From NCBI GenBank assembly GCA_963816145.1, contig CAWFJP010000017.1, forward strand, positions 251,435 through 315,434: DNA of 64,000 nucleotides, written 5' to 3'. This document shows, one piece after another, positions 7,439-62,923 of this stretch. The notes under the pieces were generated by a model, which had not been told where the DNA came from, did not search any database, and saw only the letters and a program-made list of their open reading frames with translations. The position numbers were made by a program, and so were the translations under genes. Each line of letters opens with the position of its first letter. Position 1 is the stretch's first letter. The DNA is from an uncultured delta proteobacterium (GTDB taxonomy: Bacteria > Desulfobacterota > Binatia > UBA9968).

Positions 7439-9059
7439 ATGAGCAATGTCTTGAACGAAGAAAAACAACAACAAGTACTCGTCCTTGGGCGACTTCAGTG
7501 GTCGCTGCGGCGCATCGAGGAACAGATTGGTGTTCGCCGAGAGACCGTCAGCGCGTATCTCAAAGCGGCTGGGATCGCTGTTCGCGGCCGTGGTCGCCCG
7601 GGGCGACGAGAAGTCTCAGCCCCAAGCCGTGAGCCAACGGCCAATTCGAGCGCGGCAAAACCGGCCAATCAGGTGACCACCGACTCTGGTGGGCCACCCG
7701 CAGACAAACCGCAAGCTGCACCGACAGGTCCCAGTCCCAGCGCCAGTACCTGCGAACCGTATCGCGAGAGCATAGAGCTTTGGCTGAGCCGTGGACGTAA
7801 CGCCACAGCCATCTGGCAAGACCTGGTCGATCAGCACGGCTATAGCGGCGGCTATCAAACGGTCAAGCGTTTCGTCCGTAAGCTGCACGGCACTCACTGC
7901 CCTCAAGCCGTCGGTATTATTCTGACGGCACCTGGCGAAGAAGCCCAAGTCGATTACGGCACCGGTCCGATGGTGCGCGACGAGCAAAGTGGCAAGTACC
8001 GACGCACTCGGCTGTTCGTCATGACTCTGGGCTACAGCCGCAAGGCGGTACGGTCTGTTGGTCTTTCGCTCCAGTTCCCAGACCTGGGCCGAGCTCCACG
8101 AGAAAGCTTTTCGCCGTCTGGGCGGCACGACGCGTGTCGTGGTGCTCGACAATTTGCGTGAAGGCGTGCTCAAGGCCGACATCAACGATCCCACCCTCAA
8201 TCCACTGTACCGCGATGTGCTGTCACACTACGGCGTGGTAGCCATGCCGTGCCGTGTCCGAGACCCGGATCGAAAAGGCAAAGTTGAAGCCGGCGTCGGA
8301 CACGCCCAGAAAACTCCGCTCAAGGGGCAGCGCTTCGAGAGCTTGGAAGAGGCTCAAGCCTATCTCGATCACTGGGAGAAGCGCTGGGCCGATACCCGCA
8401 TACATGGCACCACCAAGCGCCAAGTGGCAGTCATGTTCGCCGAGGAAAAGCCGTTCTTACAGCCGTTGCCGATTGAACCGTTTCGCTACTACCAGTACGG
8501 CGAGCGGGTGGTCCATCTCGATGGCTGTGTCGAAGTGGAGCGGGCTTACTACGGACTACCCTCAGGCTGGATCGGTCGGCAGGTCAAAGTCCAATGGGAT
8601 GCTCTGCATGTGCGTATCCTCGATCCCAAGAATTATCAGCTCTTGCGCGAACACCTGCGCCAGTTCCCCGGCAACTACCGCATCAACGACGAGGATCGCT
8701 CTAAGAAAACTCCGCTCTCCACCGTGCAACTGTTGGCCCGAGCTGCCAAGGCCGGTCCCCATATCGGCCAGCTCTGCCAGGCGATCTATCGCAACGAAGC
8801 CCAACTCGGCATCCGCCGTATTCTCGGTGTCATGGCGCTCGCCAAAAAGCATGGCGTGGCTGCTGTCGACGATGCCTGCGCTGCGGCTCTCGATCTGGGC
8901 GTGGAGAGCTACCGCTTCGTGCGCCGCTATCTGGAACGCCGTCCCCAGCTCTCGCTGCGCCATGTCGATCCGCTGATCCGGGAACTGTCCGAATACCGTG
9001 ATCTGATCAACCTCAGAACCAAAGACAATGAAAAGGAGCAAGAAAATGAATCTGATTGA
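7439..9059 (+). CDS. istA: IS21 transposase IstA (one extra base near 8055)
   Basis: N-terminal HTH, PGEEAQVDYG, VVLDNLREGV, DPDRKGKVEAGV, RIHGTT. Removing one base restores RKAVRLLVFRSS. Confidence 0.88.
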
Positions 9060-9801
9060 ACTCAACCGTGCCTTGAAGCAACTGCGCCTGGGCGGTATGG
9101 CCGCCGTCTTGGAAACCCGTTTACTCCAGGCTCAGGCCCAATCGATGGCCCCCATCGATCTGATCTCCTGTCTGATCTCCGATGAACTCTCGCGCAGGAG
9201 TAATCGATTGCTGGAGCGGCGCCAAAAACAAACGCAGTTTCGTGACCCGCAGAAAACTCTGGACAGCTTCGATTTCTCTTTCAACAAGAAACTCAACCGT
9301 AGTCTTGTCTTCGATCTGGCCACCGCCGGCTTTATCGCTAAGCATGAAGACGCCCTCTTTTTAGGTCCGCCCGGCACCGGTAAGTCGCATTTGGCTCAGG
9401 CTATAGGTCTGGCTGCCATCCAACAAAACTACCGCGTGCTCTACCGTGAAACCCATACGCTTCTCGATGAGATCGCTGAAGCCACCATCGACGGCTCGCG
9501 CAAGCAACACATGGAACTACTGGCCACCGTGCCGCTGCTCATCATCGATGATCTCGGTATGCGTAAACTCCCATCGACAGCGGCTGAGGATCTGCTGGAA
9601 ATCGTCATGCGCCGCTACGAGCGGGCCAGCACTTTGATGACCTCCAATCGCCCGGTGGAGGACTGGGGCAAATTACTCGGCGATAGCGCAGCGGTCTCGG
9701 CCATGCTCGATCGCTTACTGCATCACGGCCATGTCCTAAAATGCGGCCCTCGTAGTTGGAGAACTAAAATGGACTTGCCTGATCAGGAGGCAAAAAGCTA
9801 A
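9046..9801 (+). CDS. istB: IS21 helper ATPase IstB
   Basis: GPPGTGKSHLA, LLIIDDLG, TSNR, AMLDRLLHH; AAGGAG RBS. Confidence 0.93.
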   Translation: MNLIELNRALKQLRLGGMAAVLETRLLQAQAQSMAPIDLISCLISDELSRRSNRLLERRQKQTQFRDPQKTLDSFDFSFNKKLNRSLVFDLATAGFIAKHEDALFLGPPGTGKSHLAQAIGLAAIQQNYRVLYRETHTLLDEIAEATIDGSRKQHMELLATVPLLIIDDLGMRKLPSTAAEDLLEIVMRRYERASTLMTSNRPVEDWGKLLGDSAAVSAMLDRLLHHGHVLKCGPRSWRTKMDLPDQEAKS

Positions 9802-37633: not shown

Positions 37634-40384
37634 TTACTCCAGTGCGGCGGCGTGAATGTCGAGCGCGACGAGTTTCAGTAGTTCGTCGTCCTTCATCTCG
37701 GTCAGCAGCAGATCGGCTCCGCCCTCGAGCAGATCCTGCGATAGCTGTCGTTTCGAGTCAATCAGCGCGTCGATTTTCTCCTCCACTGTGCCGCGGCACA
37801 AGAACTTCTGGATGAGCACATTCTTGGTCTGACCGATGCGGAAGGCGCGATCCGTCGCTTGGTTTTCGACCGCTGGATTCCACCAACGATCGAAATGAAC
37901 GACGTGCGTTGCCGCAGTCAAATTAAGCCCGGTTCCGCCCGCCTTCAACGATAGCACGAAGAACGGCACGGCTTCGTCTTCCTGAAACTGGCGCACAAGA
38001 GACTGGCGCTTCTTCACGTCGGTTTCGCCGTGCAGCACAAGTCCAGGATGGCCAAACACCGAGCCCAGAAACGCCGCCAGCGGCGCCGTGACTTCGCGGA
38101 ATTGCGTAAAGACCAATACCTTTTCCTGCCTCGCAGCAATAACCTCGACAATCTCGCGCAGGCGCGCGAACTTGCCGCTGTCCGCTTCGGCCCATGCGCC
38201 GTCGCCGAGCCATTGCGATGGGTGATTGCAGATTTGTTTGAAACGCATCAGAAAGGCGAGGATTATACCACGACGCTCGATGCCGGCGGTCTTATCAAGT
38301 CGTTCGGATAATTCCGTCACCGCTTCCTGATACAGCGCGGCCTGCTTGCGTGTGAGTTGGCAGAACGCCTTCAACTCGGTCTTGTCCGGCAAATCCGCGA
38401 TGACGCTTTTGTCCGTCTTTAACCGCCTCAAGATGTATGGCCGCACCAACTCGCGCAGGGGCGCGTAGGGATTATGCGGCCTTTCGGCGAGGCGTTTGGT
38501 GAACGTCGTGAATTCCTTGCTCGATCCGAGCAGGCCCGGATTGATGAAGTCGAAGATCGACCAAAGATCTCCGAGCCGGTTTTCCACCGGCGTGCCGGTA
38601 AGCGCGATCCGCGCTTGAGCATCTATCTGCTTGGCCGCCCGTGTTTGCCGGGCGGCGGGGTTCTTGATCGCCTGCGCCTCGTCCAGCACGGCCAGTCGCC
38701 ATTGGATTTTCAAAATTTCGGCAACGCGCGAGAGCGTTCCGTAGCTCGTGATGACCAGATCGACGCCGGCGAGGCGGTGCGCCTCAAGACTACGCAATTC
38801 GGCGGCTGGCAGCGCCGATGGATGCGCGACGACCACCTTCAGACTTGGCGCGAAACGTGCAATTTCCGCTGCCCAGTTGGCCAATAACGACGCCGGCGCG
38901 ACGAGCAGACTAGGCCGCCCCGGACCGGCGCCGTCGCGCCGCAAGACGAGCATCAGCGCGAGCACCTGCATCGTCTTGCCCAGTCCCATATCGTCAGCCA
39001 GGCAGGCGCCGAGACCGAGCGTGGACAGGAGGTGGAGCCAGCGCAGGCCGGCCTGCTGATACGGCCGCAGCGTCGTTTTCAGTTCATCCCCTGGTTTCAA
39101 GCGCGCGAGTGCTTGCGGATGGCGGAGCTCTTCGAGAGTTTCAGCAAACCACGGACCCGCGACAATGCGCGACCAGTCGAGCGCTGCCGGATCCGCGGGA
39201 GCGCTGTCAGAGACGTTTGCGCCCGCGAGCATGCGCATGGCGTCTGCGAAAGTCATTCCGGTCTCAGCCGCCGCTTTTTCAACGGCGCGAAACTGGTCGA
39301 GCATTCTGGCGAGCTTCTCGCGATCCACTTCGACCCAGCGGCCGCGAACCAGATGCAGGCCATTGGAGTCTGCGAGCAGCTTCGCTATCTCGGCTTCGCT
39401 TAAGCGCTCGCCATCGAGCGTGACTTCCATGCGGAAATCCAGCAGCGCGTCCGTGCCGATTCCCGATGGCGGCTTGCCGCCCACGGTCGCAGTCACTTGA
39501 GGCCGCGATGGACGATTCGCTCGCCAAGCGCTTGGCACGCGCACGATCACACCCGCCGCTTCGAGGAGCGGTAGATCCTTCAGCAGTTGAAAAGCCTCTG
39601 CGGGTGTCCAGCGCAGCGGGTGAAAGACCTCGGCGGAATCGACCATCGCCTTGAGCCAGGGACACTGCTCGGCGGCGCGCTGCACTGGCAACAGCAGCGA
39701 CAGCAGCCGCGATTTGTTCGCCGCGCCGGCATACTCGCTGAGCGCCCTGCCGAGCGGCAGGTGTTGAGCCTGCGCCTGCGCCGACAAGCGCGTCGTGTAG
39801 GTGGCCAGGAATGCGAACGGCGCTTCGTTATCTTTGCGGTTCTCGGCGAGATTGAAATGGACCCGTCCAACCAGGTTCCAGGCTGGGTTCTTGCGCTTGA
39901 GGAAGTCCTGGACCGATAGCTTGGACTGCGCCAGTTCCAACCGAAACGCCGCATCGATATCGTTCCAGAGCGTACCCAGAACGGCAGCCGTCAGATATTC
40001 CGCTCCGGTCATCGACGGTGCCGCCAAAGCGAATGAGTCGAGATCCTCGCGCGCCGGCGGCGCTACCGGCGGCAATGCGTGGCCAACTTCGACATCCGCA
40101 AGCGCGCAGCGGGCCGCGACGTAACGCCCGGAAAACTCGCGCCAGTACATGAACACGGGCGGCATCGCTGTCTGAATCTCGGCGGCGCCGAGTTGCAGAA
40201 GACCGTGACCGTGGCCTTGTGTAAACGCTTCCTTCAGTCTCTCCGCGAGATCCGAGGAGAGCGGTGGCGCATCGTCAATCTCTGTGAGCAGCAAACGGCC
40301 CTGTGGCGTGAGGACCGGAGCCAGGAATGTCGTCAGCGTATTGGAGCTATGAACCACGACGGTAATAGACCAGCCTTCTCTCAC
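37634..40384 (-). CDS. SNF2/SWI2-family helicase-like ATPase
   Basis: LRPYQ, LADDMGLGKT, DEAQ, TGTPVEN, RRLK, SLKAGGTGLNL, WWNPAVENQATDRAFRIGQ. True start may be slightly downstream of 40384. Confidence 0.93.
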   Translation of the reverse strand: MREGWSITVVVHSSNTLTTFLAPVLTPQGRLLLTEIDDAPPLSSDLAERLKEAFTQGHGHGLLQLGAAEIQTAMPPVFMYWREFSGRYVAARCALADVEVGHALPPVAPPAREDLDSFALAAPSMTGAEYLTAAVLGTLWNDIDAAFRLELAQSKLSVQDFLKRKNPAWNLVGRVHFNLAENRKDNEAPFAFLATYTTRLSAQAQAQHLPLGRALSEYAGAANKSRLLSLLLPVQRAAEQCPWLKAMVDSAEVFHPLRWTPAEAFQLLKDLPLLEAAGVIVRVPSAWRANRPSRPQVTATVGGKPPSGIGTDALLDFRMEVTLDGERLSEAEIAKLLADSNGLHLVRGRWVEVDREKLARMLDQFRAVEKAAAETGMTFADAMRMLAGANVSDSAPADPAALDWSRIVAGPWFAETLEELRHPQALARLKPGDELKTTLRPYQQAGLRWLHLLSTLGLGACLADDMGLGKTMQVLALMLVLRRDGAGPGRPSLLVAPASLLANWAAEIARFAPSLKVVVAHPSALPAAELRSLEAHRLAGVDLVITSYGTLSRVAEILKIQWRLAVLDEAQAIKNPAARQTRAAKQIDAQARIALTGTPVENRLGDLWSIFDFINPGLLGSSKEFTTFTKRLAERPHNPYAPLRELVRPYILRRLKTDKSVIADLPDKTELKAFCQLTRKQAALYQEAVTELSERLDKTAGIERRGIILAFLMRFKQICNHPSQWLGDGAWAEADSGKFARLREIVEVIAARQEKVLVFTQFREVTAPLAAFLGSVFGHPGLVLHGETDVKKRQSLVRQFQEDEAVPFFVLSLKAGGTGLNLTAATHVVHFDRWWNPAVENQATDRAFRIGQTKNVLIQKFLCRGTVEEKIDALIDSKRQLSQDLLEGGADLLLTEMKDDELLKLVALDIHAAALE

Positions 40385-41486: not shown

Positions 41487-43474
41487 CCCGACTTCGCGGA
41501 TTCGCCACCGGAAAAAAAGTTTAGGCGAGCGTAAGGTTTTGGAATTGCACGAGTTGAGTGATCGAAGACAGCGAAATCAGCTGTAGTGGAGCAACCTCCT
41601 CCCTTTTCAAACCTCTCGCAATCGGCATAATGGCGGCCATGTTTTTGCGCTCGACAACCCGCAAGAAAAACGGCAAGCAGCACCGCTACTTCAGTATCGT
41701 CGAGAACCAGCGTCTGGCCGACGGGCGAGTCGTGCAGCGTCACGTCTTGTATCTCGGTGAGATCAACTCGTCGCAAGAGTTAGCGTGGCGTAAATCGATC
41801 GAAGTCTTTGAAGAGGGGAAAGACAAGCCGAGCACCCTTGCGCTGTTTCCCGAAGATCGCTGCGAAGCGGAGATCTGTGATGAGTCGATGGTGCGGGTGC
41901 GTCTGTCCGAGCTGCGGTTGTGTCGGCCGCGGCAGTGGGGAGCCTGCTGGTTGGTGGTCAAGTTGTGGCGGGAGTTGGAACTGGACCGCTTTTGGCGGGA
42001 GCGACTGGGGCGCAGTCGCAAAGGAACGCGCTGGGACGAGGTTTTGTTGGTGCTGGTGGCCTATCGGCTGATTGCTCCTGGCAGCGAGTGGCGCTTACAC
42101 CGCCAGTGGTTTGGGCAAAGCGCCCTGGGGGATTTACTGTCAGCCGATACTTCGCTGGCCGACTCGCACAAGCTCTATGGCTGCCATGATCTGTTGCTTG
42201 AACATAAACAGGCCTTGTTCGATCACTTGATCGGGCGTTGGCGCGATCTATTCAACTTGAGCTTCGAAGTCTTGCTCTATGATTTGACCAGCACCTATTT
42301 CGAGTCCAATCCTCCTGACGATGAGAATGACAAGCGGCGTTTTGGTTACAGCCGAGACAAGCGCAGCGATTGTGTGCAGGTGGTCATTGCGCTGATCGTC
42401 ACGCCGCAGGGCTTTCCGCTGGCTTACGAAGTGTTGGCAGGCAATACCAAGGACAGCAGCACACTCAGGGAGTTTCTCGACAAGATCGAGAAGCAATACG
42501 GCAAAGCGGAGCGCATCTGGTTAATGGATCGGGGCGTTCCGACAGAAAGCGTGCTCGAACAGATGCGCCAGAGCGATCCGGCGGTGAAATACTTGGTGGG
42601 CACGCCCAAGGGACGGCTTAGTCGCTTGGAGAAACAACTCACAGACAAGCCTTGGCATCAGGCGCGGCCCGGAGTCGAGGTCAAGCTGCTGGCGCAAGAC
42701 GACGAACTCTATGTGCTGGCCCAAAGTGAGGATCGGGTCAACAAGGAGCGCTCCATGCGCCGGCGCCAACTGAAGTGGCTGTGGGCAAGACTCAAACAAC
42801 TGAGCACCATGAAGCTCAAGCGCGAAGAGCTTTTGATGAAGCTCGGAGCCGCCAAACAAAAAACTCCCAGTGCTTGGCGCCTGGTCCAAATCGAAGTGGA
42901 TAAGGATAAAGCCGCTTTTACTTACCGGTTCGATCGAGAGAAGTTACGTCGCCAACGTCGGCGTGAAGGGCGCTACTTATTGCGCACCAATCTGACCGAA
43001 TCCGATCCGGCTAAGCTCTGGAGCTTGTATCTGCAACTGGTCAATGTCGAAGAGGCGTTTAAGAATCTCAAGGGCGATCTGGCGGTCCGGCCGATCTTTC
43101 ATCAGAGCGAAAAACGGATTGAGGCGCACATTTTGGTTTCATTTTTGGCTTATTGTCTGCACATCACTCTGACCGAAAGACTACGCTCACTGGCACCGGG
43201 GCTCACTGCGCGCAGCGCTTTGGAGAAGTTTGCTGCTATGCAGATGATTGACGTGCATTTGCCAACGACTGACGGTCGCCAACTCATCATGACCCGCACC
43301 ACCCAGCCCCAGCCCGAGCTGCAACTCCTGCTCGACAAGCTTAAACTCCAACTGCCTGCACAACCGCCCCCCAAGATCACACCTGCGCAAGTCGCGGCAG
43401 CCGTGGCTCTGTAGTGCAGACCTGGGTACCCAGCTTGTTGGTTTTTCAACTACTTAACCCCTTTGACCCTCCAG
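41487..43474 (+). mobile_element. IS1634-family element, right end apparently missing
   Basis: Starts CCCGACTTCGCGG after TTAA and contains a full transposase; no matching right inverted repeat seen. Confidence 0.75.
41639..43414 (+). CDS. IS1634-family DDE transposase
   Basis: LLYDLTSTYFE, GYSRDKRSDCVQ, MDRG, VEEAFKNLKGDL, RPIFHQ. Confidence 0.9.
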   Translation: MFLRSTTRKKNGKQHRYFSIVENQRLADGRVVQRHVLYLGEINSSQELAWRKSIEVFEEGKDKPSTLALFPEDRCEAEICDESMVRVRLSELRLCRPRQWGACWLVVKLWRELELDRFWRERLGRSRKGTRWDEVLLVLVAYRLIAPGSEWRLHRQWFGQSALGDLLSADTSLADSHKLYGCHDLLLEHKQALFDHLIGRWRDLFNLSFEVLLYDLTSTYFESNPPDDENDKRRFGYSRDKRSDCVQVVIALIVTPQGFPLAYEVLAGNTKDSSTLREFLDKIEKQYGKAERIWLMDRGVPTESVLEQMRQSDPAVKYLVGTPKGRLSRLEKQLTDKPWHQARPGVEVKLLAQDDELYVLAQSEDRVNKERSMRRRQLKWLWARLKQLSTMKLKREELLMKLGAAKQKTPSAWRLVQIEVDKDKAAFTYRFDREKLRRQRRREGRYLLRTNLTESDPAKLWSLYLQLVNVEEAFKNLKGDLAVRPIFHQSEKRIEAHILVSFLAYCLHITLTERLRSLAPGLTARSALEKFAAMQMIDVHLPTTDGRQLIMTRTTQPQPELQLLLDKLKLQLPAQPPPKITPAQVAAAVAL

Positions 43475-54231: not shown

Positions 54232-54966
54232 CTAAATTTCCAGTACCATCCCATCCTCGGCAACAAGGGTGGTAATTCCATTTCTATGCGACAGCATCTC
54301 CTCGCCGAGGTGGGTGAGGACCAGCTGCTTGCATCCCATGCGGCACAGGTCGGCGGACAATGCCTGATAATTGACATGCATCCCCGGCTGCTCGTAAAAG
54401 AACGAGCACTCGCAAAGAAACAGATCGACGCCATCGGCAAGTTCGACAAATCGTTCGGTCCACAACGAATCGCCGGAAAACAAAATCGTTTTACCCTCGT
54501 AGCTCACTTTCAAGCCCAACGAAATGGCGTCGCTTTGGTGTAGCACTCGAAACGGCGCGACGGCGATGCCGTTTACATCTATCGGCTCGTCCGGCCGCAA
54601 TACCACAAAGCGCGTCGGCGGGATCTCTTTCTCTGCCGCGCCGCCGCCGTACATCACTTCAAACAGCGCCCGGACTTTGGCTTCGGTTCCCGGCGGGCCG
54701 GCGATGACCAGCGGTTCAAGTCTGGGCTGAAGATAGAGATACTCGATGAAGAAAAACGCGAGGCCACCGAAATGATCGCCGTGCAAATGACTTAAAAGAA
54801 CCGCGTCCAGGCGCCGTGGATCGAAACCGGCGCGCTTGAGCGCCAACAAAGTCGTCGGTCCGCAGTCGAGCAGGAACCGCTTATCCGTAGCTTCGACAAG
54901 ATAGCCACTCTGATTGCGCCCGCCGCTGCCGAAAGCATCGCCGCAACCGAGGATGTGCAGTTTCAT
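54232..54966 (-). CDS. MBL-fold metallo-hydrolase (RNase Z/BN-like)
   Basis: MKLHILGCGDAFGSGGR, SHLHGDH, FSGDS, LTHL. Confidence 0.88.
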   Translation of the reverse strand: MKLHILGCGDAFGSGGRNQSGYLVEATDKRFLLDCGPTTLLALKRAGFDPRRLDAVLLSHLHGDHFGGLAFFFIEYLYLQPRLEPLVIAGPPGTEAKVRALFEVMYGGGAAEKEIPPTRFVVLRPDEPIDVNGIAVAPFRVLHQSDAISLGLKVSYEGKTILFSGDSLWTERFVELADGVDLFLCECSFFYEQPGMHVNYQALSADLCRMGCKQLVLTHLGEEMLSHRNGITTLVAEDGMVLEI

Positions 54967-55228
54967 GGTAATCAGTGAACCCCGCTCCAGCGTACCTAAC
55001 ATCGCGACTGTGCATTTGGCAATGCCGTGCGGTGAGCATGATTCGGGTTCAGCATCTGAAAATGGCGTGGTGTGTGAGGCGCAACCCTTCGGGCATGAAG
55101 AATATGGGTTACTAACTTTGCGACAGCCCGGCGGCGTGAACTTTGACGGCGAAGATTGACGGGATAGATCGTTTGTCGCACCGAGCGGTAAGTTGCTTTT
55201 TCCTTGGTGTACGACTAGAGTTACCGTC

Positions 55229-55837
55229 GTGGCAGAGGACAAGCGGCCGTTTTTTACCTCGTATAGCACCAGTCTTTGGGTTCGCTTTCTCCGTTTTAGT
55301 TTGCGTTCGCACAAGAAACTGGAAGACGACTTGCAAGAGTTGGGGCTGACGCCGCCGCAGTTCTATGTCCTGGCGACCATCGGTTATGCCGGCAGCCTGC
55401 CCTTCGGCGAGATCGGCGCAAAAATGCTGGTGACGGTGAGCAATCTGACCGGCATCGTCGACCGGCTCGAGGACAAAAAATTCGTCGTACGCAAGCGCGA
55501 CGACAAGGACCGCCGGGTGGTCCACGTGATGTTGACCGATAAGGGCGCCAAGCTTTACAAGAGCACGATTCCGCTGTTCGAAAAGTGCGTCGGGGAAATC
55601 TTCGCCGGCCTGAACAATGCCGACCAGAAGCAACTGTCCGCGTTACTGCGGCGGCTCGATCATGAAGCCTGCGACGAAGTGATCGGAGCTGTCCGCTCCA
55701 CTATCTCCTGGTTTTCTCTTTCGACTCTTAGAACTCATATTTTAGACGTCAGAAGTCCGTTGTCAGAAGGACAATTGGCCATACGCGGTGCTGCCATTTT
55801 TCAAGTTGGCCAGCGCCGCTTGATTGACACCGAATAA
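55229..55837 (+). CDS. MarR-family regulator (tail beyond ~55670 may be readthrough)
   Basis: LTPPQFYVL, TGIVDRLE, RKRDDKDRRVVHVMLTDKG winged-HTH pattern. Confidence 0.88.
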   Translation: MAEDKRPFFTSYSTSLWVRFLRFSLRSHKKLEDDLQELGLTPPQFYVLATIGYAGSLPFGEIGAKMLVTVSNLTGIVDRLEDKKFVVRKRDDKDRRVVHVMLTDKGAKLYKSTIPLFEKCVGEIFAGLNNADQKQLSALLRRLDHEACDEVIGAVRSTISWFSLSTLRTHILDVRSPLSEGQLAIRGAAIFQVGQRRLIDTE

Positions 55838-55867
55838 TGGCAAGCTATAACAGTTAAGACCTTAACT
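55824..55867 (+). promoter_or_regulatory. sigma70 promoter with overlapping palindromic operator
   Basis: TTGACA (55824)-16 bp-TATAAC (55846), immediately followed by AGTTAAG-AC-CTTAACT (55852-55867). Confidence 0.75.
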
Positions 55868-55890
55868 ATTTTTTCCAGGCGCTCATTCCA

Positions 55891-57107
55891 GTGGCAGACG
55901 CAACACAACAAACCTCTCGGACTCGAACGGGTAAAAAAATGGCTGTACGCCAAGGGGCTCGACGAGCGCAGCAGCGGTTGCGTCCTGTGCGGTTCCTGTT
56001 ACGGCCATGGGCCGGCCAATCCGATGGAGGATGTTCCTGGGCCAAAAGAAAAGTGCCCGCCCTACGAGTACTACAAGTTTCAGCGCCACACGCCCAAGTC
56101 GCGCTGGTTGATGGCGCAGCGGGTGTTTCATGGCCTCGATCCGATCACGCCGGAATTGAAAGAGGTCATGTACGCCTGCACCAATTGTCTGATGTGCCAG
56201 GAACTCTGCGGCGTGCGCGGCGACGGTTACGGGCCATGGGATATCACCGTTGCCATGCGCGAAGAGATCACCGAAAAAGACGGCCCGCTGCCGGCGCACC
56301 AGGCGATTTACGATGGGCTCAAACAACATGACAATCCTTGGGGACAAGCAGCGCATGGCGCATGGGCCGACGGCTTAGGTCTCAAGCAACTCGGCGAGGG
56401 CAAAGCTTCGACGTTGTTATTCGCCGGCTGTTCGGCCGATCGGTCGAGCGGCAAGAGCGGCGCCGTTGCGCTGGCCAAGTTGATGCAAAAGGCCGGTGAC
56501 GATTTTGCCATTCTCGGCGACCAGGAAAAATGCTGCGGACTATACGCCTTCGATCTTGGTTATCGCCGCGAGTATGAACGGCTGAAAGACGCCAATCTGG
56601 CAGCGTTGGCCCAAGCTGGCGTCAAGAAAGTCGTCGTTGCCTGCGGCAGTTGCCAGCGCATCTGGCGCGAGTATGCCAAAGAAGCGAGCGGCGTTGAGAT
56701 CATGCATGGCGTCGAGTTCGTTGCCCAGGCGGTCCAATCCGGGCAATTGCGCTTCACTCAATCCATCGACATGAAAGTGACCTATCACGACTCTTGTCAC
56801 CTCGGCCGCGGCTGCGGCGTTTACGATCCGCCGCGCGCGATTCTGCGGGCGATTCCCGGTTTGCAATTAGTCGAGATGGAGCGCAATCGACGCTGGGCCT
56901 GGTGTTGTGGCGGCGGCGGCGGCGTGCCCGAGGCTGATCCGGAATTAGCCCAGTGGAATGCGGCCGATCGCATGCGCGAAGCGCGCGCCAGCGGCGCAGA
57001 AATCATGCTGACGTCGAGCGCGTTGTGCCAACGGTCGTTTAACGATTTGCCCGAGGCCGGCCTGCCGACGCAAGATTTACTCGAATTTATCTTTAACGGC
57101 GCTATAA
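55891..57107 (+). CDS. Fe-S oxidoreductase (GlpC/HdrD-like, two ferredoxin-type clusters + two CCG domains)
   Basis: CVLCGSC...CP, CTNCLMCQELC, FAGC, EKCCG, ACGSC, YHDSCHLGR, WCCGGGGG. Extra base near 55911; a second apparent indel near 57098 removes the stop at 57105-57107. Confidence 0.82.
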
Positions 57108-57109
57108 TC

Positions 57110-57844
57110 ATGGTTAAAGAACCGCACTTCACACCGCAACGGATGCTCAACATGCTCGGTCTCAAGCCGAATTCTCTCGGCCCTTACGCGCTGGTGCCCG
57201 GTCCCAAGGAGCGCAGCGAGTCGATGTTGAAGCTCTTGGACGAGCCGCAAAAGAGCTTTACTTTTCTCGACTACGAGATGCATACCGGCGGGCTCGACGG
57301 CAAGCGCGTCAGCATCGGCAACGGCGGCCGCTACGCGCCGGACACGGCGATCACGACGGAGATTCTTTGCGGCGCCGGCGCGGAATCTTTGATCCGCGTC
57401 GGCAGCTGCGGCTCGCTGCAGGACGACGTCAAAATCGGCGATCTGGTGATCGTCACCGGCGCGCTGCGCGGCGAGGGCACCTCGCGTTATTATGTCGCCG
57501 AGAATTTTTCCACTGTGGCCGACCCGGGCATCGTCGCCGCGTTGAAGCGGGCGGCGGAAGATTTGCAAGTGCGCTTTCATCTCGGCTGGATCTTCACCAC
57601 CGACGCGCTGTTTCAAGAGACGCCGGAATTGATTCAGCAATTGAACGAGCAAAACATCTCGAGCATCGACATGGTGACTTCGACGTTTTTGACGATCTCA
57701 CAGGTGCGCGGCAAGAAGGCCGGCGCGGTGCTGGCGGTGTCGGATGAATGTCTCTATGGCAAGTTCGGTTTCCGCGATCCGGGATTTTTCGCGGCCGAAC
57801 AGAAAACCATCGAAGTCGCGCGCCAGGCGCTGAAATATCTTTAG
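57110..57844 (+). CDS. Nucleoside phosphorylase (PNP/UDP family)
   Basis: LVPGPKER, IRVGSCGSLQ, ALRGEGTS, TTDALF, IDM, AVSD. Confidence 0.85.
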   Translation: MVKEPHFTPQRMLNMLGLKPNSLGPYALVPGPKERSESMLKLLDEPQKSFTFLDYEMHTGGLDGKRVSIGNGGRYAPDTAITTEILCGAGAESLIRVGSCGSLQDDVKIGDLVIVTGALRGEGTSRYYVAENFSTVADPGIVAALKRAAEDLQVRFHLGWIFTTDALFQETPELIQQLNEQNISSIDMVTSTFLTISQVRGKKAGAVLAVSDECLYGKFGFRDPGFFAAEQKTIEVARQALKYL

Positions 57845-57871
57845 ACTCCCGCCATTGGCCCAATCGAAATC

Positions 57872-59391
57872 ATGAACGCCGCCCAAAGTCCGCTATTTGA
57901 ACCGGTTGTTTGGCACGACGGCGGCTTCAAGATCCTCGACGAGATTCAAGTCCCGCAAAAGATCCATTACATCGAGGTGACCGAGGTCGGCCAAGCGCTC
58001 GACGCCGTGCGCGAGATGAGGACCCGCGCCTTCGGCCAGGTGCTGACCTATCTCTATAGCGCAGCCTTGGTTGCACAACATTATCACAGAGCGGAAGCGG
58101 CGCCGTTGCAAGAGCAATTGCAGCAGTTAACCCAGCGCTTCTGCGACGCGCGGCCGACCTTCGATTTTCGCGGTCTCGGCGCTTTCGTCGGATGGCTTCT
58201 TCGAAAAACTCCCCGCCGGCGCCGACGTCGGCGCAACCATCGCCACGCGAGCGCGCGAGTTCGGCCAGCATATTGTGCGCGGCCGCAGCTGGCCGGGCCA
58301 AGCGGACCGCGGCGATTCTGCCCAGCCCGGTGCGGCTGCTGACGCATTGCAATATCAGCGGCGAGCTGGTCGCTGTGGCCGCGAATTGCAAAGAGATGGG
58401 CAAAGAGTTTTCCGTGATCGCTACGGAAACTCGTCCCTACTTGCAAGGCGCGCGACTGACGGCCTGGGAGCTGGCCCAGGCCGGCGTGAGCGTTTCATTG
58501 ATCCCTGACAGCGCGGTGGCGCAGGTATTGGCGCAAGGTGAAGTCAATGCGGTGATCGTCGGCGCCGACCGGGTGGCGCAAAACGGCGATGTTATCAACA
58601 AGGTCGGCACCTATCCGATCGCGCGCATGGCCAAAGAGTATGGCGTGCCGTTTCACGCCTTGGTACAAGATCCGGGTTCGTTGGCGCGCGGTATGGATGT
58701 GCCGATCGAAGAGCGGCCGGCCGAAGAGTTGCTTACTTTTCGCGGCCGCCCTTTAGTTGCCGGCGATCACGCGCAGTTGCAGGTGCGCTATCCATCGTTC
58801 GATGTGACGCCGGCTGAGTACATCACGCAACTGATCGGTTTCGACGCGGTCTATACGCCGGAAAGCTTTCGGCAGAAATATCAAAAGGACGCTTCGGCTC
58901 CGGTGATCGAGCCCCCAGCCGGCGGCAATTATTTGTTGATTTACGGCGTGCCGCCGCCGAACCAATTGTCATTTCTTCTCAGCGCGTTGAAAGCGGAGGG
59001 AGCCGGGAGCATCTTGATTCCGGAGATGCGCCCGCAGCTTTGGGGCGCGCGCCGCGTCGCTCCGGAACTTATCAAGCGCGACGCCCCGACCACGCTGATT
59101 TCCGACAACATGATGGGCACGCTGTTCGCTCATGGCGAGATCGCCAAGCTGTGCTTTTTCTATGACGGCTTGGCGCCGGAGGGGCCGCGCGGCATTTGTG
59201 GCGCACTGCTGGCAGTGCAGCTGGCGCGCTTGCATGGCGTCGCCATCGAGCTTTTCAGCGGCGACGGGCATAGCGAATCGACCGCCGATAGCGATGTCTC
59301 GACTTTTCTCGGCGAACTGATTTGTCCGGACGGCGTCGTAGTCCGGCCACTCGGTGCGGAAGTCGTTCCATGGGCTCTATTCAAAAGTTAG
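57872..59391 (+). CDS. mtnA: MtnA/eIF2B-family ribose-1-phosphate isomerase with extra C-terminal domain (frameshifts at ~58195-58290)
   Basis: ILDEIQVP, THCN, ETRPYLQGARLTAWEL, VGADRVAQNGDVINKVGTY, PIEER, FDVTP. Confidence 0.8.
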
Positions 59392-59404
59392 ACAAGGTTG
59401 AGTT

Positions 59405-60403
59405 GTGGCTAAAATCGACAACGACATGATCCGCTTGGGCAAGCTGCTGTTCGAGCGCCGGCTGATCAGCGGCTGGGGCGGCAATCTGAGTTGCCGCATT
59501 GGCAAAAACGATTTTCTCATTACCGGGCAGCATGCGCCGCTGGGCTTTTTAACGGCAAAAGATTTGGTGCGCATCCGCGCTGACGGCAAGCCGTTGAAAA
59601 AAAGCCAGCGGGCGTCGAGCGAAACGCCGATGCATCTGGCGGTCTACGCCGGCACCGATGCCCAGGCGATCGTCCATGTCCATCCGCCGATGGTGCTGGC
59701 GTTTTCCTTATCGCACGACAGCTTTGCGCCGCTCAGTTACGAAGAGAAATACACCATCGGCAAGGTGCCGGTCATTCCTCAGGACACGCCGACGGTGACC
59801 AAACCGGAAGCGGTGGTCGAAGCGCTCAAATACAACCCCATTGCGATCATCAAAGGCCACGGCACGGTGGCGATCGGCAACACTTTTCAGGAAGCGTTTC
59901 TCTACACCGACTTGCTCGAAGAAGCGGTGTTTTGCCAATTCTATCAAAGCGGCATCGCTGGGCCGCGCACGCTGGGAGATGTGCGCTCCGCGGCAGCGGC
60001 TGCGGCGAGCCCGGCCGCGGGCAAGGCGTACGAGCTGTTCTCGCAAGCGCATATGGCCGCGCTGGTCGACAGCGCCAACGGCGACGGCGACTTTCGCCAA
60101 TCCGGCAGCGCTACCAGCTTAACCACGTCGTTGACCTTGCACATGGAAGATACTGACGCGGCCTGGACGGTGCACTTTGTCGGCGGCGAAATTACCGCCT
60201 TGACCGAAAAATCGGATGGTGATTTTCTCATCAGCGGCCAGGCCGAGTGGTGGCGGGCGGTGTTCAGCAATAAGATCGACGCGTTCCTAGCGACGCAGCA
60301 GGGCAAGTTGAAACTCAAACGCGGCGAACTGGCGCAGTTATCGCGCTGGTACAAACCATTTCAGAGGGCATTTGCGTTATGGCAGACGATACCGATTCAC
60401 TAG
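59405..60403 (+). CDS. Class II aldolase/adducin-family protein fused to an SCP2-like domain
   Basis: GNLS, SSETPMH, HVHP, GHG; C-terminal DFLISG..EWWRAV...DAFLATQQGKLKLKRG is SCP2-like. Confidence 0.85.
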   Translation: MAKIDNDMIRLGKLLFERRLISGWGGNLSCRIGKNDFLITGQHAPLGFLTAKDLVRIRADGKPLKKSQRASSETPMHLAVYAGTDAQAIVHVHPPMVLAFSLSHDSFAPLSYEEKYTIGKVPVIPQDTPTVTKPEAVVEALKYNPIAIIKGHGTVAIGNTFQEAFLYTDLLEEAVFCQFYQSGIAGPRTLGDVRSAAAAAASPAAGKAYELFSQAHMAALVDSANGDGDFRQSGSATSLTTSLTLHMEDTDAAWTVHFVGGEITALTEKSDGDFLISGQAEWWRAVFSNKIDAFLATQQGKLKLKRGELAQLSRWYKPFQRAFALWQTIPIH

Positions 60404-61908
60404 GATTCTATGCCGGCGAAGTTTTGGAACGGACCGCGGCGCGCCAACCGGACAAAACCGCGATCATCGCCAAGGAAGAGGAGTTGACGTTCGCCGCGCT
60501 CAATCGGCGCGTGCACGCGCTGGCCGGCCACTTGAGCGCAGAGGGCATCCGCCAGGGCGACCGGGTCGGCGTCCTGTTGCCGAACTCCGCGGCGATTCCG
60601 CTAACTTATTATTCGACCCAGAAGATCGGCGCCGTCAGCGTGATCCTCGATGCCCGCTTGAAGGGTAAAGAACTCGAAGGCGTGTTGCAGGACGCCGATT
60701 TGAAACTGCTGGTGGTGCACCAGCAGCTTTATCCAGAAGTCGAAGAGATCTTTAAATCCATGACGCCAATCCCGGTCTGGGTCGCCGGCGCTAGCGGCGA
60801 GCGCAGTTTTGAGCTACGTTTCAGCGGCGGCGCAGCAGTGACGAACTTGCCGAGTTTCAAGCCCGACGACGATGCTTTGATTCTTTACACCTCGGGCACC
60901 ACCGGCGAGCCCAAAGGCGTGGTGCTGTCCTATCGCAATCTGCTGCAGTACCCCAGAGTGATGCGTGAGATGGGCGTTACCGATTCGGCGACCATGCGCG
61001 GTTGCGTGTTGCCGATGTCGCATATCGTCGGCCCGGTGGTGTGCAACGAGTTGGCGGAAAAGGGCTATACGCTGGTGATCTTCGATCAGATCAATCCGGT
61101 TACCTTGCTCGAAGGCATTCAAAAATACCGGGTCGATGTCTTCGAAAGCGTGCCGATCGTGTTTCAGCTTTTGCTCGGCGTGAAAAACCTGGCCAGCTAC
61201 GACACCAGCAGCATGAAGATCGCCGCGATGATGGGCACGAGCATCCCGATGCCGCTGTTGCGTGCGTTTCAGGCCGCCCAGCCGCATATCAAAGTGATTC
61301 AAGGCTACGGTTTGACCGAAACGTCACCGATGATCACGCTGGTCGATCCGGACAAAGCCGAAGCCAAGATGGGCAGCATCGGCCGGGCCGTGCCCGGCGT
61401 GGAGGTGCGCATCGTCGATGAAAACGACAAAGAAGTGCCGGTGGGCGAGGCCGGCGAGATCATCACCCGCGGACCGCATGTCATGAAGGGATACTTTCGC
61501 CGCGCCGATGCCACTGCGCAGCGCATCCGCAACGGCTGGCTCTACACCGGCGATGTCGGCAAGGTCGAAACGGACGGTTATTTCTACCATCTCGGCCGGC
61601 GCGACGACATGATCATCACCGGCGGCTTGAACGTCTACCCCGCCGAGGTGGAAAATATGATTTATACCTATCCCGGCGTGCAGGAGACCATTGTCTTCGC
61701 CATCCCCGAGGCCAAGCGCGGCCATGTGATCGGCGCCGCCATCGTGCCGCGGCCGGGGGCAGCGCTCGTCGAAAAAGAGTTGCTGACTTTTCTGCGCGCC
61801 AATCTGGCCAACTTCAAAGTGCCCGACCGCATCGTCATCCGCGAATCGCTGCCGCGCACCTCGTCGGGGAAAACGATCCGGGACGCCGCGACGCTGCTGG
61901 GGGATTGA
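60379..61908 (+). CDS. Acyl-CoA ligase (class I adenylate-forming)
   Basis: YTSGTTGEPKG, QGYGLTETSP, YTGD, GRRDDMIITGGLNVYPAEVE, SGK. Confidence 0.92.
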   Translation: MADDTDSLGFYAGEVLERTAARQPDKTAIIAKEEELTFAALNRRVHALAGHLSAEGIRQGDRVGVLLPNSAAIPLTYYSTQKIGAVSVILDARLKGKELEGVLQDADLKLLVVHQQLYPEVEEIFKSMTPIPVWVAGASGERSFELRFSGGAAVTNLPSFKPDDDALILYTSGTTGEPKGVVLSYRNLLQYPRVMREMGVTDSATMRGCVLPMSHIVGPVVCNELAEKGYTLVIFDQINPVTLLEGIQKYRVDVFESVPIVFQLLLGVKNLASYDTSSMKIAAMMGTSIPMPLLRAFQAAQPHIKVIQGYGLTETSPMITLVDPDKAEAKMGSIGRAVPGVEVRIVDENDKEVPVGEAGEIITRGPHVMKGYFRRADATAQRIRNGWLYTGDVGKVETDGYFYHLGRRDDMIITGGLNVYPAEVENMIYTYPGVQETIVFAIPEAKRGHVIGAAIVPRPGAALVEKELLTFLRANLANFKVPDRIVIRESLPRTSSGKTIRDAATLLGD

Positions 61909-61915
61909 AAATCGT

Positions 61916-62170
61916 TCACCACGAAGGACACGAAGAGCACGAAGGCCGGAATTCTGGTCGCAAAGAGCGCAAAAAAGAAATCGGATTATCTCTCGCAAAG
62001 GCGCAAAGACGCCAAGGGAAGAGAAAAATGTCATTTCGACCGGAGGGAGAAATCTTTGTTAGATCACTCGCCCGGGCTCGGGATGACTGGCTTTGCCCGT
62101 CACTTAGCGTCTTTGCGCTCCTTCGACTTTGCTCAGGACATGCTTTGCGGGAGAAATCTCCGGATCCGAT
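61916..62170. repeat. Nested composite of short palindromic intergenic repeats
   Basis: CACGAAG x3; TCTCGCAAAGGCGCAAAGACGCCAAG pairs with CTTAGCGTCTTTGCGC...CTTTGCGGGAGA, enclosing GTCATTTCGA...GGGATGAC and interrupted by CTTCGACTTTGCTCAGG. Confidence 0.75.
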
Positions 62171-62200
62171 ATCTCTATCTCCCCGGCGGTAAGTGAATCC

Positions 62201-62923
62201 ATGATAACTTGGCCGGCAGCGCCCGCTGATCTTCCAGCGCTTGAACAGACGGTCCATGTCTGGGCGGTGCCGCTTGACGATGCGAGCGTCGATCTCGACG
62301 GCGGGCGGGAGTTGCTCTCGCCGGACGAGCGCGAGCGGGCGGCGCGCTTTCACTTCGAACAGCACCGGCGGCGCTATTTAATTGCCCATATCGCGCTGCA
62401 TGAAATCCTCGGCCGCTATTTGCAAATTGACCCAGCGCGGCTGTTTTTCGAACTCGGCAGCAACGGCAAGCCCAGGCTGCCGGCGTCACTCGCGGCGAGC
62501 GGCATTGATTTCAATCTGTCCCATTCCCATGAAATGGCACTGCTCGCCGTCAACCGCATCGGCGAGCTCGGCATCGATATCGAGTACGCCAAACCCGACT
62601 TCAAATTCCAGGAAATCGCCGAGCGATTCTTCACGGCGCGGGAAGTCGCGGCAATGCGCGGATTGCCAACCGACTTGCAACGCCAGGCGTTTTTCAAATG
62701 CTGGACTAGCAAAGAGGCTTTTCTCAAGGCCAAGGGCACCGGGTTGTCGGGCAACTTGGACGAAGTTGAAATCACCCTTGGCGCTCAGGATCAAGTGCTC
62801 ATTCATGCCAACGTGTCTGGCTGGTCTTTGACCGAACTGGACCGGGTCGAGACTTACGAATCCACGCTCGTCGTTTCCGGTGCACCGGTGCCGATCCTCT
62901 ACTATCATTGGCAGCCGTATTGA
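62201..62923 (+). CDS. Sfp-type 4'-phosphopantetheinyl transferase
   Basis: LSPDERERAARF, GKP, FNLSHS, GIDIE, WTSKEAFLKAKGTGL. Confidence 0.93.
   Translation: MITWPAAPADLPALEQTVHVWAVPLDDASVDLDGGRELLSPDERERAARFHFEQHRRRYLIAHIALHEILGRYLQIDPARLFFELGSNGKPRLPASLAASGIDFNLSHSHEMALLAVNRIGELGIDIEYAKPDFKFQEIAERFFTAREVAAMRGLPTDLQRQAFFKCWTSKEAFLKAKGTGLSGNLDEVEITLGAQDQVLIHANVSGWSLTELDRVETYESTLVVSGAPVPILYYHWQPY

Follow-up and report, generated by a model that had tools for sequence, protein, structure and literature searches.

A MarR-linked operon of Binatia with an extended dihydroxyacetone phosphate shunt-like core and a possible role in trimming 5'-substituted nucleosides

A 64,000-nt stretch of the genome of an uncultured delta proteobacterium (Desulfobacterota; Binatia; UBA9968; assembly GCA_963816145.1, contig CAWFJP010000017.1, positions 251,435 to 315,434, forward strand), referred to here in its entirety as the window, carries at 55229-61908 a MarR-family regulator gene followed by a run of five genes for a CCG-domain Fe-S protein, a nucleoside phosphorylase, an MtnA-like isomerase, a class II aldolase fused to an SCP2 domain and a FadD-like ligase. 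A preliminary description of this DNA had named these genes and proposed that they extend the dihydroxyacetone phosphate (DHAP) shunt; Pfam matches confirmed their presence, placement and + strand orientation. The features of the locus are as follows.

55193-55221, + strand: predicted promoter of the MarR gene (-35 TTGCTT at 55193-55198, 17-nt spacer, -10 TAGAGT at 55216-55221)
55229-55837, + strand: MarR-family regulator, as the literal open reading frame (PF01047, 57.8 bits; cut-off 24.6)
55824-55867, + strand: predicted operon promoter and palindrome (TTGACA at 55824-55829, TATAAC at 55846-55851, palindrome at 55852-55867)
55891-57107, + strand: CCG-domain Fe-S protein of the HdrD/GlpC/TfrB type (two PF02754 matches, 98.4 bits; Fer4_8, 19 bits)
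57110-57844, + strand: nucleoside phosphorylase of the hexameric DeoD/Udp/SsMTAP type (PF01048, PNP_UDP_1, 108.8 bits)
57872-59391, + strand: long MtnA-like isomerase with an IF-2B-family core and a C-terminal part, C2 (PF01008, 170.7 bits)
59405-60403, + strand: class II aldolase fused to SCP2 (PF00596, 137.2 bits; SCP2, 18.5 bits)
60379-61908, + strand: FadD-like AMP-forming ligase (PF00501, 286.1 bits; PF13193, 62.1 bits)
62129-62923, + strand: Sfp/HetI-type 4'-phosphopantetheinyl transferase, PPTase (PF01648, 65.7 bits; PF22624)

The tight gene spacing noted earlier was borne out once the reading frames had been corrected: 2 nt separate the CCG gene from the phosphorylase gene, 27 nt the phosphorylase from the isomerase and 13 nt the isomerase from the aldolase, and the aldolase and ligase genes overlap by 25 nt. 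All operon proteins scored below every curated NCBIfam cut-off. No known RNAs, riboswitches included, were detected at E <= 0.1 across 54-64 kb of the window.

In a collection of species-representative genomes, 34 Binatia-type loci with at least 5 kb on both sides were found, and all 34 contain MarR, the phosphorylase, the long MtnA-like isomerase with C2, the aldolase and the ligase. The CCG gene is present in 32 of them and the PPTase gene in 22, and none of the 34 contains radical S-adenosylmethionine (SAM), aldehyde dehydrogenase or MMPL genes of the types found beside the same core in other lineages (see below). The proposed gene set thus co-occurs throughout these loci and recurs, without the CCG gene, in the sister family. 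Among 41 related genomes surveyed, full-length aldolase-SCP2 was found in 23 of the 24 genus genomes, a count that includes G005 and one copy split in two; the sole genus genome without it (G017) is 80% complete. In the 12 genus loci that were mapped, CCG, phosphorylase, isomerase, C2, aldolase and ligase are all present in 12/12 and MarR in 11/12. In the sister family (G025, G029), AddAB is followed by MarR, the phosphorylase, the long isomerase, an aldolase that lacks SCP2 and the ligase; near the G025 operon there is also a gene for a lipid A-type acyltransferase. The third family has the phosphorylase and aldolase only, in 4 of 11 genomes.

Several genes are broken in the window as assembled. 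The CCG gene has no in-frame start, its GTG at 55891 being thrown out of frame by an extra base at 55901, and an extra base near 57091 deletes its stop (TAA at 57105-57107 in the corrected frame), such that CCG and phosphorylase read as a single 606-aa open reading frame; in relatives, CCG occupies a separate 411-residue open frame (~404 aa from the start codon). The isomerase is split over three frames, with extra bases near 58189 and 58288, and an intact relative's isomerase (505 aa in the intact orthologues) matches the window as three pieces in three frames (tblastn). MarR runs ~50 codons beyond its normal stop, with an extra base near 55667/55668; the protein ends in ...LDHEPVAK in relatives, the stop without the extra base would be TGA at 55680-55682, and an intact relative's MarR covers 55229-55666 at 91% identity (tblastn). 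Alignment with five relatives identified window-specific single extra bases at ~55667, 55901, 57091, 57845, 58190 and 58290, and the extra bases are absent from all five. Contigs of four public metagenome runs, which fit 55600-58400 at ~90-99% identity, lack the base at 55668, 55784/5, 55901, 58189 and 58288 in all four runs, and at 57090-57094 and 57843 in all three runs that cover those sites.

Split genes in the operon are also seen in two low-contig-count genus assemblies (G018 and G003), and a third (G019) holds several scattered single-base extras; the present assembly comprises 7.8 Mb in 31 contigs. Because the metagenome contigs and the relatives lack the bases and other assemblies show similar splits, the frame breaks in this copy are probably consensus or assembly errors, and family-level statements made here rest on intact orthologues. 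The alternative is that the insertions are real, the isomerase truncated and the operon decaying in this strain, leaving the locus inert here whatever the family does elsewhere. Decay would fit the concentration of the breaks, as a 2.7-kb stretch has five of the seven extra bases inside genes, against few window-specific frame-breaking indels, mostly intergenic, in the preceding 10 kb, and it would also fit the aldolase and ligase genes being free of extra bases. Yet every difference is a single inserted base, the G018, G003 and G019 assemblies show like splits or extras, as consensus errors would give, and the contigs of all four runs lack each base wherever its site is covered; we consider decay improbable.

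The promoter with an operator noted earlier for the gene run does exist, but its position is between the MarR and CCG genes. There, TTGACA and TATAAC flank a 16-nt spacer and are directly followed by a 16-bp palindrome (AGTTAAGacCTTAACT, built as AGTTAAG-ac-CTTAACT), with the GTG start of the CCG gene downstream at 55891. A consensus promoter scan missed this promoter, as TATAAC fails the rule used in the scan. When the 170 nt ahead of the CCG start were aligned for 37 Binatia loci, a conserved TTGACA, a 16-17 nt spacer, TATAAA or TATAAC and then a palindrome of the form GTTWA-N4-TWAAC were observed; promoter plus palindrome was extracted by script from 35 of the 37 upstream regions, and 33 look correct by eye. 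Genome-wide, the operator pattern has 13 matches against ~10 expected by our estimate, and only the match at this locus stands in a promoter context. A regulon shared with the radical SAM operon described below was rejected, with 0/13 of these matches upstream of the radical SAM gene.

The hexamers of the promoter ahead of MarR and the GTG at 55229, which begins 7 nt after that promoter ends, are likewise conserved in the aligned upstream regions of Binatia relatives, and the MarR mRNA may be leaderless. Given this conserved promoter of its own, MarR is predicted to be a separate upstream transcription unit, with the putative operator lying on the start site of the five-gene operon. A winged-helix MarR domain and a palindrome at the promoter, as expected for a MarR repressor, are both present in the sequence, and the regulator probably represses the sigma-70 operon promoter through the palindrome until a ligand arrives.

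The phosphorylase gave its best NCBIfam match to uridine phosphorylase (139.5 bits; cut-off 280.3), and its matches do not include MtnP (TIGR01694). An alignment of 13 sequences showed that its clade has an invariant D-M-V/I in place of the E-M-E seen in solved uridine phosphorylase (3qpb), purine nucleoside phosphorylase (1xe3) and Sulfolobus 5'-methylthioadenosine (MTA) phosphorylase (1jds); we take the second Glu of E-M-E to bind the ribose hydroxyls. The VSD aspartate of purine and MTA enzymes is kept, as are the phosphate-site Arg and Ser. From its sequence, the enzyme is assigned to a distinct clade of the hexameric DeoD/Udp/SsMTAP group and not to MtnP.

The isomerase, described earlier as MtnA-like, was confirmed as such: beyond its PF01008 match it scored 244.3 bits against NF004326 (MtnA), just below the cut-off of 271, and compared with 2yrf (Bacillus MtnA) and 1t5o it keeps the THCN Cys and GADR Asp, which are presumably the catalytic residues of MtnA. 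Its C-terminal ~165 aa (C2) repeat core residues 180-276 in degenerate form (30% identity, E 6e-9).

In the aldolase-SCP2 fusion, the aldolase domain spans residues ~1-185 and the second domain residues ~195-332. E73, H91, H93 and H152 are invariant in 32 sequences and, by FucA residue numbering, are taken to be the catalytic Glu and the three His ligands. The nearest solved structure is 2fk5, with DrdA (6btd) weaker at 44 bits; the MtnB model gave 60.9 bits against a cut-off of 137, a level at which the sequence cannot tell an aldolase from an MtnB-type dehydratase. Together with the isomerase motifs, these domains and residues bear out the earlier view that phosphorylase, isomerase and class II aldolase form a DHAP-shunt-like core. 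The SCP2 match of the window copy itself is under the cut-off (18.5 against 21.3 bits), and the domain, which the preliminary description had also named, was secured at the level of the family: PF02036 matches 24 of 32 members (best E 1.2e-9), and a profile of the C-terminal domain finds solved SCP2 proteins (1wfr, E 9e-5; 2cx7, E 1.2e-4). An AlphaFold2 model restricted to the C-terminal domain (20 sequences; predicted local distance difference test score, pLDDT, 88; predicted template modeling score, pTM, 0.78) gave SCP2 protein 2cx7 as its best Foldseek match (E 1.6e-9; template modeling scores, TM, 0.79/0.84; root-mean-square deviation 1.8 A), followed by UbiJ-SCP2 and the SCP2-like domains of alkylsulfatases. 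Sequence and model together indicate that the domain has the genuine fold of SCP2 lipid-binding proteins. When 1.84 billion representative sequences were searched with a profile, 216 proteins were returned at E <= 1e-30, and by our count ~27 of the best 150 are full-length fusions.

The ligase has feruloyl-CoA and fatty-acyl-CoA (CoA, coenzyme A) synthetases, FadD5 and FadD13 as its nearest solved structures and PRK06187 as its best subfamily model (422.3 bits; cut-off 476), and is classed by sequence as a FadD-like acyl-CoA or acyl-carrier ligase of the ANL superfamily, not an acetyl-CoA-synthetase-like enzyme. A quick tree joins the Binatia ligases to no other sequence than the ligase from a single distant radical SAM cluster (approximate likelihood ratio test support 97). 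The PPTase gene begins 220 nt downstream of the ligase, and its product scored 206 bits against the HetI model (cut-off 370). Its membership of the operon is uncertain and we treat it as a frequent neighbor; the interval between the ligase and PPTase genes contains no gene for a carrier protein. A gene for an ACPS-type phosphopantetheinyl transferase was observed between the phosphorylase and isomerase genes of a distant cassette (L053, G166:C9, 7747-8085), and the two transferases together hint that a carrier protein is involved.

The CCG protein carries the Cys motifs CVLCGSC, with no fourth Cys in register, and CTNCLMCQELC, and its Fer4_8 match (19 bits) is below the cut-off of 27. Its best equivalog is TfrB (136.8 bits; cut-off 385), it also resembles HdrD and GlpC far below their cut-offs, and in Atlas it falls into generic CCG clusters only. 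The earlier proposal that this protein oxidizes the released aldehyde found no support; in other lineages that place is taken by a standard aldehyde dehydrogenase, and the sister family has no CCG gene.

Related gene sets were found well beyond Binatia. In 8 of 151 genomes of the phylum, one isomerase is closer to the operon isomerase (38-43% identity) than is the second, weaker MtnA-family match that all eight genomes also contain. The core of these eight loci comprises the phosphorylase, the isomerase, C2 as a separate 152-aa protein and aldolase-SCP2 (SCP2 above the Pfam cut-off), with a B12-binding radical SAM enzyme, an aldehyde dehydrogenase, MMPL, LolA-like/DUF1329 and DUF1302 proteins and an AMP-ligase as partners. 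The stand-alone C2 protein has 95 relatives, all called "hypothetical" or given generic IF-2B/MtnA-family names, among which the named ones come from Desulfofervidus, Thermodesulfobacteriota and Omnitrophota. Anchoring on C2 gave 12 metagenome loci with at least 5 kb on both sides and several gene orders, in which the radical SAM enzyme, isomerase and aldolase-SCP2 are present in 12, the phosphorylase and aldehyde dehydrogenase in 11, MMPL and LolA-like proteins in 8 and the ligase and DUF1302 in 7. A variant cluster without the aldolase (L055, G157:C241, 7783-13975) was also observed, in which phosphorylase, isomerase and B12-radical SAM genes stand with those for a 182-aa protein with a weak IF-2B half-domain, a ligase and a lipid A-type acyltransferase; the Binatia ligases have their nearest relative in the ligase of this cluster.

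The radical SAM enzyme of this wider module is BchE/P-methylase-like, below every cut-off. Its best match in the present genome, by a wide margin, lies at C12:36995-38506 (374.6 against 92.1 bits), and the reciprocal best match of this protein is the module enzyme in three of five distant genomes, with a near tie in the other two. The gene belongs to a conserved set (G000:C12:36995-42800; L061:9996-15804) for a B12-radical SAM enzyme, a short-chain dehydrogenase/reductase, a FAD_binding_4 oxidase, a heme-oxygenase/TenA-like protein and an O-methyltransferase, which is complete in four genus genomes (G000, G003, G004 and G018), and the neighbors of the radical SAM gene differ in the sister family. 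It is present in 21 of 24 genus genomes (G005 included), the three without it being 65-84% complete, in 4 of 5 sister-family genomes and in none of 11 third-family genomes. This phyletic pattern parallels that of the full module, and only two or three independent events are involved.

On this evidence, we consider it an even question whether the Binatia operon is a form of a widespread nucleoside-trimming module that uses DHAP-shunt chemistry to turn a 5'-substituted, probably hydrophobic nucleoside into DHAP and an activated acid. The operon promoter would drive the CCG Fe-S protein, the phosphorylase, the long isomerase, aldolase-SCP2 and the ligase. The phosphorylase would strip a purine, probably adenine, from a 5'-substituted 5'-deoxy-nucleoside to leave a pentose 1-phosphate, which the MtnA-type isomerase would convert into the ketose 1-phosphate, its degenerate C2 half-domain being presumably non-catalytic. 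The zinc aldolase would then split this sugar into DHAP and an aldehyde that keeps C4' and C5' together with the 5' substituent, the fused SCP2 domain holding the hydrophobic tail. The aldehyde would be oxidized to the acid, in other lineages by the dedicated aldehyde dehydrogenase, and the FadD-like ligase would adenylate the acid and hand it to CoA or a carrier protein. The nucleoside itself is perhaps a 5'-deoxyadenosyl adduct produced by the B12-radical SAM enzyme, whose gene adjoins the module in other lineages but lies apart from it in this genome; such an adduct is suggested, by analogy, because the radical SAM partner is constant in the distant lineages.

A hydrophobic 5' substituent, in preference to the hydrogen of 5'-deoxyadenosine, is favored because SCP2 is fused to the aldolase in both Binatia and Desulfofervidaceae, because the ligase is FadD-like and because lipid-export genes accompany the module elsewhere. 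A special substrate is further indicated by the coexisting housekeeping paralogues, as separate MtnP (321.6 bits) and canonical MtnA (296.2 bits) are encoded at other loci of the genome, and the special, probably hydrophobic substrate envisaged in the preliminary description appears reasonable in light of these paralogues, the SCP2 domain and the distant lipid-linked loci.

Several observations weigh against this reading. To our knowledge, there is no enzyme activity on record for any member of the module. The oxidation step lacks an assigned enzyme in Binatia, and a single-query search of the genome at E <= 1e-60 found no close orthologue of the module aldehyde dehydrogenase. In Binatia the operon and the radical SAM gene are unlinked, with no such gene within 10 kb in any of the 34 loci, and radical SAM enzymes with a B12 domain are known mainly as methylases, which would simply release 5'-deoxyadenosine. 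The aldolase of the sister family lacks the SCP2 domain, and the quick tree places the Binatia ligases outside the main clade of module ligases, on an unresolved backbone. An N-terminal His is invariant in the phosphorylase clade; in DeoD-type enzymes this His is presumed to contact the 5'-OH, which sits uneasily with a bulky 5' group. Lastly, the copy in the window would be inactive if its frame breaks were real.

Two other readings of the enzyme core were weighed. The first is catabolism of the ribose of ordinary nucleosides, in which ribose 1-phosphate would be isomerized to ribulose 1-phosphate and cleaved to DHAP and glycolaldehyde, the latter then being oxidized and activated, as a shortened analogue of the non-carboxylating pentose bisphosphate route of haloarchaea. 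The aldolase does show a sub-threshold match to the NCBIfam ribulose-1-phosphate aldolase (70 bits; cut-off 300), the isomerase one to the ribose-1,5-bisphosphate isomerase model (124 bits; cut-off 314), and the CCG protein is weakly GlcF-like (27 bits). All of these matches are, however, far below their cut-offs, the isomerase scores far higher on MtnA models (244 bits), and the operon holds neither a kinase nor a phosphatase. As the SCP2 domain, the radical SAM enzyme and the lipid-export partners are also left unexplained, ribose catabolism appears very improbable.

The second, and the main rival, is a paralogous DHAP shunt that clears 5'-deoxyadenosine or MTA left by radical SAM enzymes, giving DHAP and acetaldehyde or methylthioacetaldehyde, with the ligase, CCG protein and SCP2 domain acting in a neighboring lipid pathway or in minor roles. 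The module stands beside a radical SAM enzyme in 12/12 distant loci, and this enzyme, being BchE/P-methylase-like, would release 5'-deoxyadenosine; the genome also has no MtnB at the cut-off, and its best match to the MtnB model is the operon aldolase. Against such disposal, fusion of SCP2 to the aldolase, seen in Binatia and in distant lineages alike, would be purposeless for acetaldehyde, the ligase is not of the acetyl-CoA-synthetase type, and the genome already holds MtnP and MtnA. Moreover, the Binatia operon comes with a MarR-type control of its own, a radical SAM gene is found within 10 kb in none of the 34 loci, and the phosphorylase pocket reads D-M-V where its solved relatives have E-M-E. 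Disposal of 5'-deoxyadenosine accounts for the core, but it leaves unexplained the fusion to SCP2, the type of ligase and the MarR-controlled operon that stands alone in Binatia, and we judge it rather unlikely.

Specific known identities were considered as well. Canonical methionine salvage was rejected, as no MtnB was found at the cut-off; the ARD family is represented in the genome by one borderline partial match (26.8 bits, or 27.3 with neighbors; cut-off 27). The genome holds ~20 separate class II aldolase/MtnB matches, an unusually large paralogue family with a similar count in relatives. Two substrates offered as examples in the preliminary description were weighed. A futalosine-like compound is disfavored because the phosphorylase is not MqnB-like (24.9 bits; cut-off 124.7), and the best MqnE match in the genome reaches 308.8 against 434.55 bits. 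For an adenosylhopane-like compound, the home-made form was excluded: the best HpnH match in the genome is 41.4 bits (cut-off 225), the operon phosphorylase scores 21.6-30 bits against HpnG (cut-off 187.1) and no HpnG was found elsewhere in the genome, in which squalene-hopene cyclase is represented only by a 33.7-bit fragment with an in-frame stop. This rejection covers adenosylhopane made by the cell itself; foreign adenosylhopane taken up from outside may still be a substrate.

Returning to the trimming of a hydrophobic 5'-substituted nucleoside, we tentatively propose, as a bolder version that is less likely than not, that the module is the back half of an undescribed lipid-building route. 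As HpnH does with diploptene, a B12-radical SAM enzyme would join the 5'-deoxyadenosyl radical of SAM to a lipid at an olefinic carbon, and trimming by the phosphorylase, isomerase and SCP2-aldolase would leave C5' and C4' on the lipid as a two-carbon carboxymethyl extension. The resulting acid would be activated for transfer to CoA, a carrier protein or an acyltransferase, and the MMPL, LolA-like and DUF1302 proteins of other phyla would export the product. In Binatia, the operon would be under MarR control and the radical SAM enzyme encoded elsewhere, adjoining a heme-oxygenase-like enzyme that could make the olefin; alternatively, Binatia may use the trimming half to feed on adenosylated lipids from soil.

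If the trimming reading is true, the DHAP-shunt enzymes would do more than dispose of waste, turning an adenosylated, probably lipidic intermediate into an activated acid extended by two carbons. SAM would thereby serve as a carbon donor in a new way, in soil Binatia as well as in Thermodesulfobacteriota and Omnitrophota. A function would also follow for families so far called "hypothetical", namely the stand-alone half-IF-2B protein, the aldolase-SCP2 fusion and the new phosphorylase clade. If disposal of 5'-deoxyadenosine were the truth, the locus would be only an elaborately dressed salvage operon for that compound. The locus also offers a testable regulator-operator pair.

The remainder of the window contains a number of other genes. 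Upstream of MarR lie a gene for a SPOR-domain D-Ala-D-Ala carboxypeptidase and a divergent gene for a metallo-beta-lactamase-fold protein (54232-55314, - strand). The latter is listed as a 360-aa open reading frame, homology begins near residue 118 (MKLHILGCG...) and a weak match to the Apyc1 family was noted; the true gene is therefore predicted to encode ~242 aa (54232-54960). A hybrid nonribosomal peptide synthetase-polyketide synthase (NRPS-PKS) cluster at 11042-36615 (+ strand) holds an asparagine-synthase-like gene, a 1138-aa protein whose sole Pfam domains are A-T, a 3826-aa protein with KS, AT and aminotransferase domains, two condensation, two adenylation and three carrier domains, and further proteins of the types KS-AT-KR-DH-ACP and C-A-T. 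A tie between the operon and this cluster (11-36.6 kb) was rejected, as a comparison with two relatives showed no synteny between cluster and operon, and the PPTase at 62129-62923 could serve the cluster. Mobile-element genes lie at 8058-9801 and 41558-43414 (Mu-transposase-like plus IstB, IS21-type; DDE transposase), and a SNF2 helicase gene at 37634-40384.

Among known systems, the closest is the DHAP shunt or 5-deoxyribose salvage (MtnP or MtnK/DrdK, MtnA/DrdI and Ald2/DrdA), whose known three-gene clusters recycle 5'-deoxyadenosine (Beaudoin et al. 2018, PMC6079011) and which is also the subject of two E. coli papers (PMC10986504, PMC12632272). The Binatia operon resembles it in order and logic, with a purine nucleoside phosphorylase-family enzyme, a 1-phosphopentose isomerase of the IF-2B family and a zinc-dependent class II aldolase encoded together, in being paralogous to housekeeping methionine-salvage genes and in its predicted products adenine, DHAP and an aldehyde. 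In contrast to the shunt, the phosphorylase is of the DeoD/SsMTAP type with an altered pocket instead of MtnP, the isomerase carries or, in the distant module, is trailed by a degenerate half-domain, and the aldolase has SCP2 as a second domain. The FadD-like ligase is a constant addition, to which Binatia add the CCG Fe-S protein and MarR, and the distant lineages a B12-radical SAM enzyme, an aldehyde dehydrogenase and lipid-export genes. A full-text search, with subscription journals outside its reach, found no literature linking DHAP-shunt genes to SCP2, an acyl-CoA ligase, B12-radical SAM enzymes or MMPL.

The fluoroacetaldehyde route of Streptomyces cattleya, mentioned in PMC6079011, likewise proceeds through a phosphorylase, an isomerase and an aldolase, and the 5' substituent of 5'-deoxyadenosine leaves on a two-carbon aldehyde. 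That substituent is small and polar, however, and the route operates without SCP2, a ligase, an Fe-S protein or a radical SAM partner. Precedent for the proposed adduct comes from the HpnH/HpnG and MqnE/MqnB pairs, in which, according to PMC13459092, a radical SAM enzyme attaches the 5'-deoxyadenosyl radical to an olefinic lipid or metabolite and an enzyme of the purine nucleoside phosphorylase family removes adenine. HpnH and MqnE are not B12-domain enzymes, unlike the radical SAM enzyme of the module, and the hopanoid and futalosine routes stop short of the isomerase, aldolase and ligase, all of which the module has.

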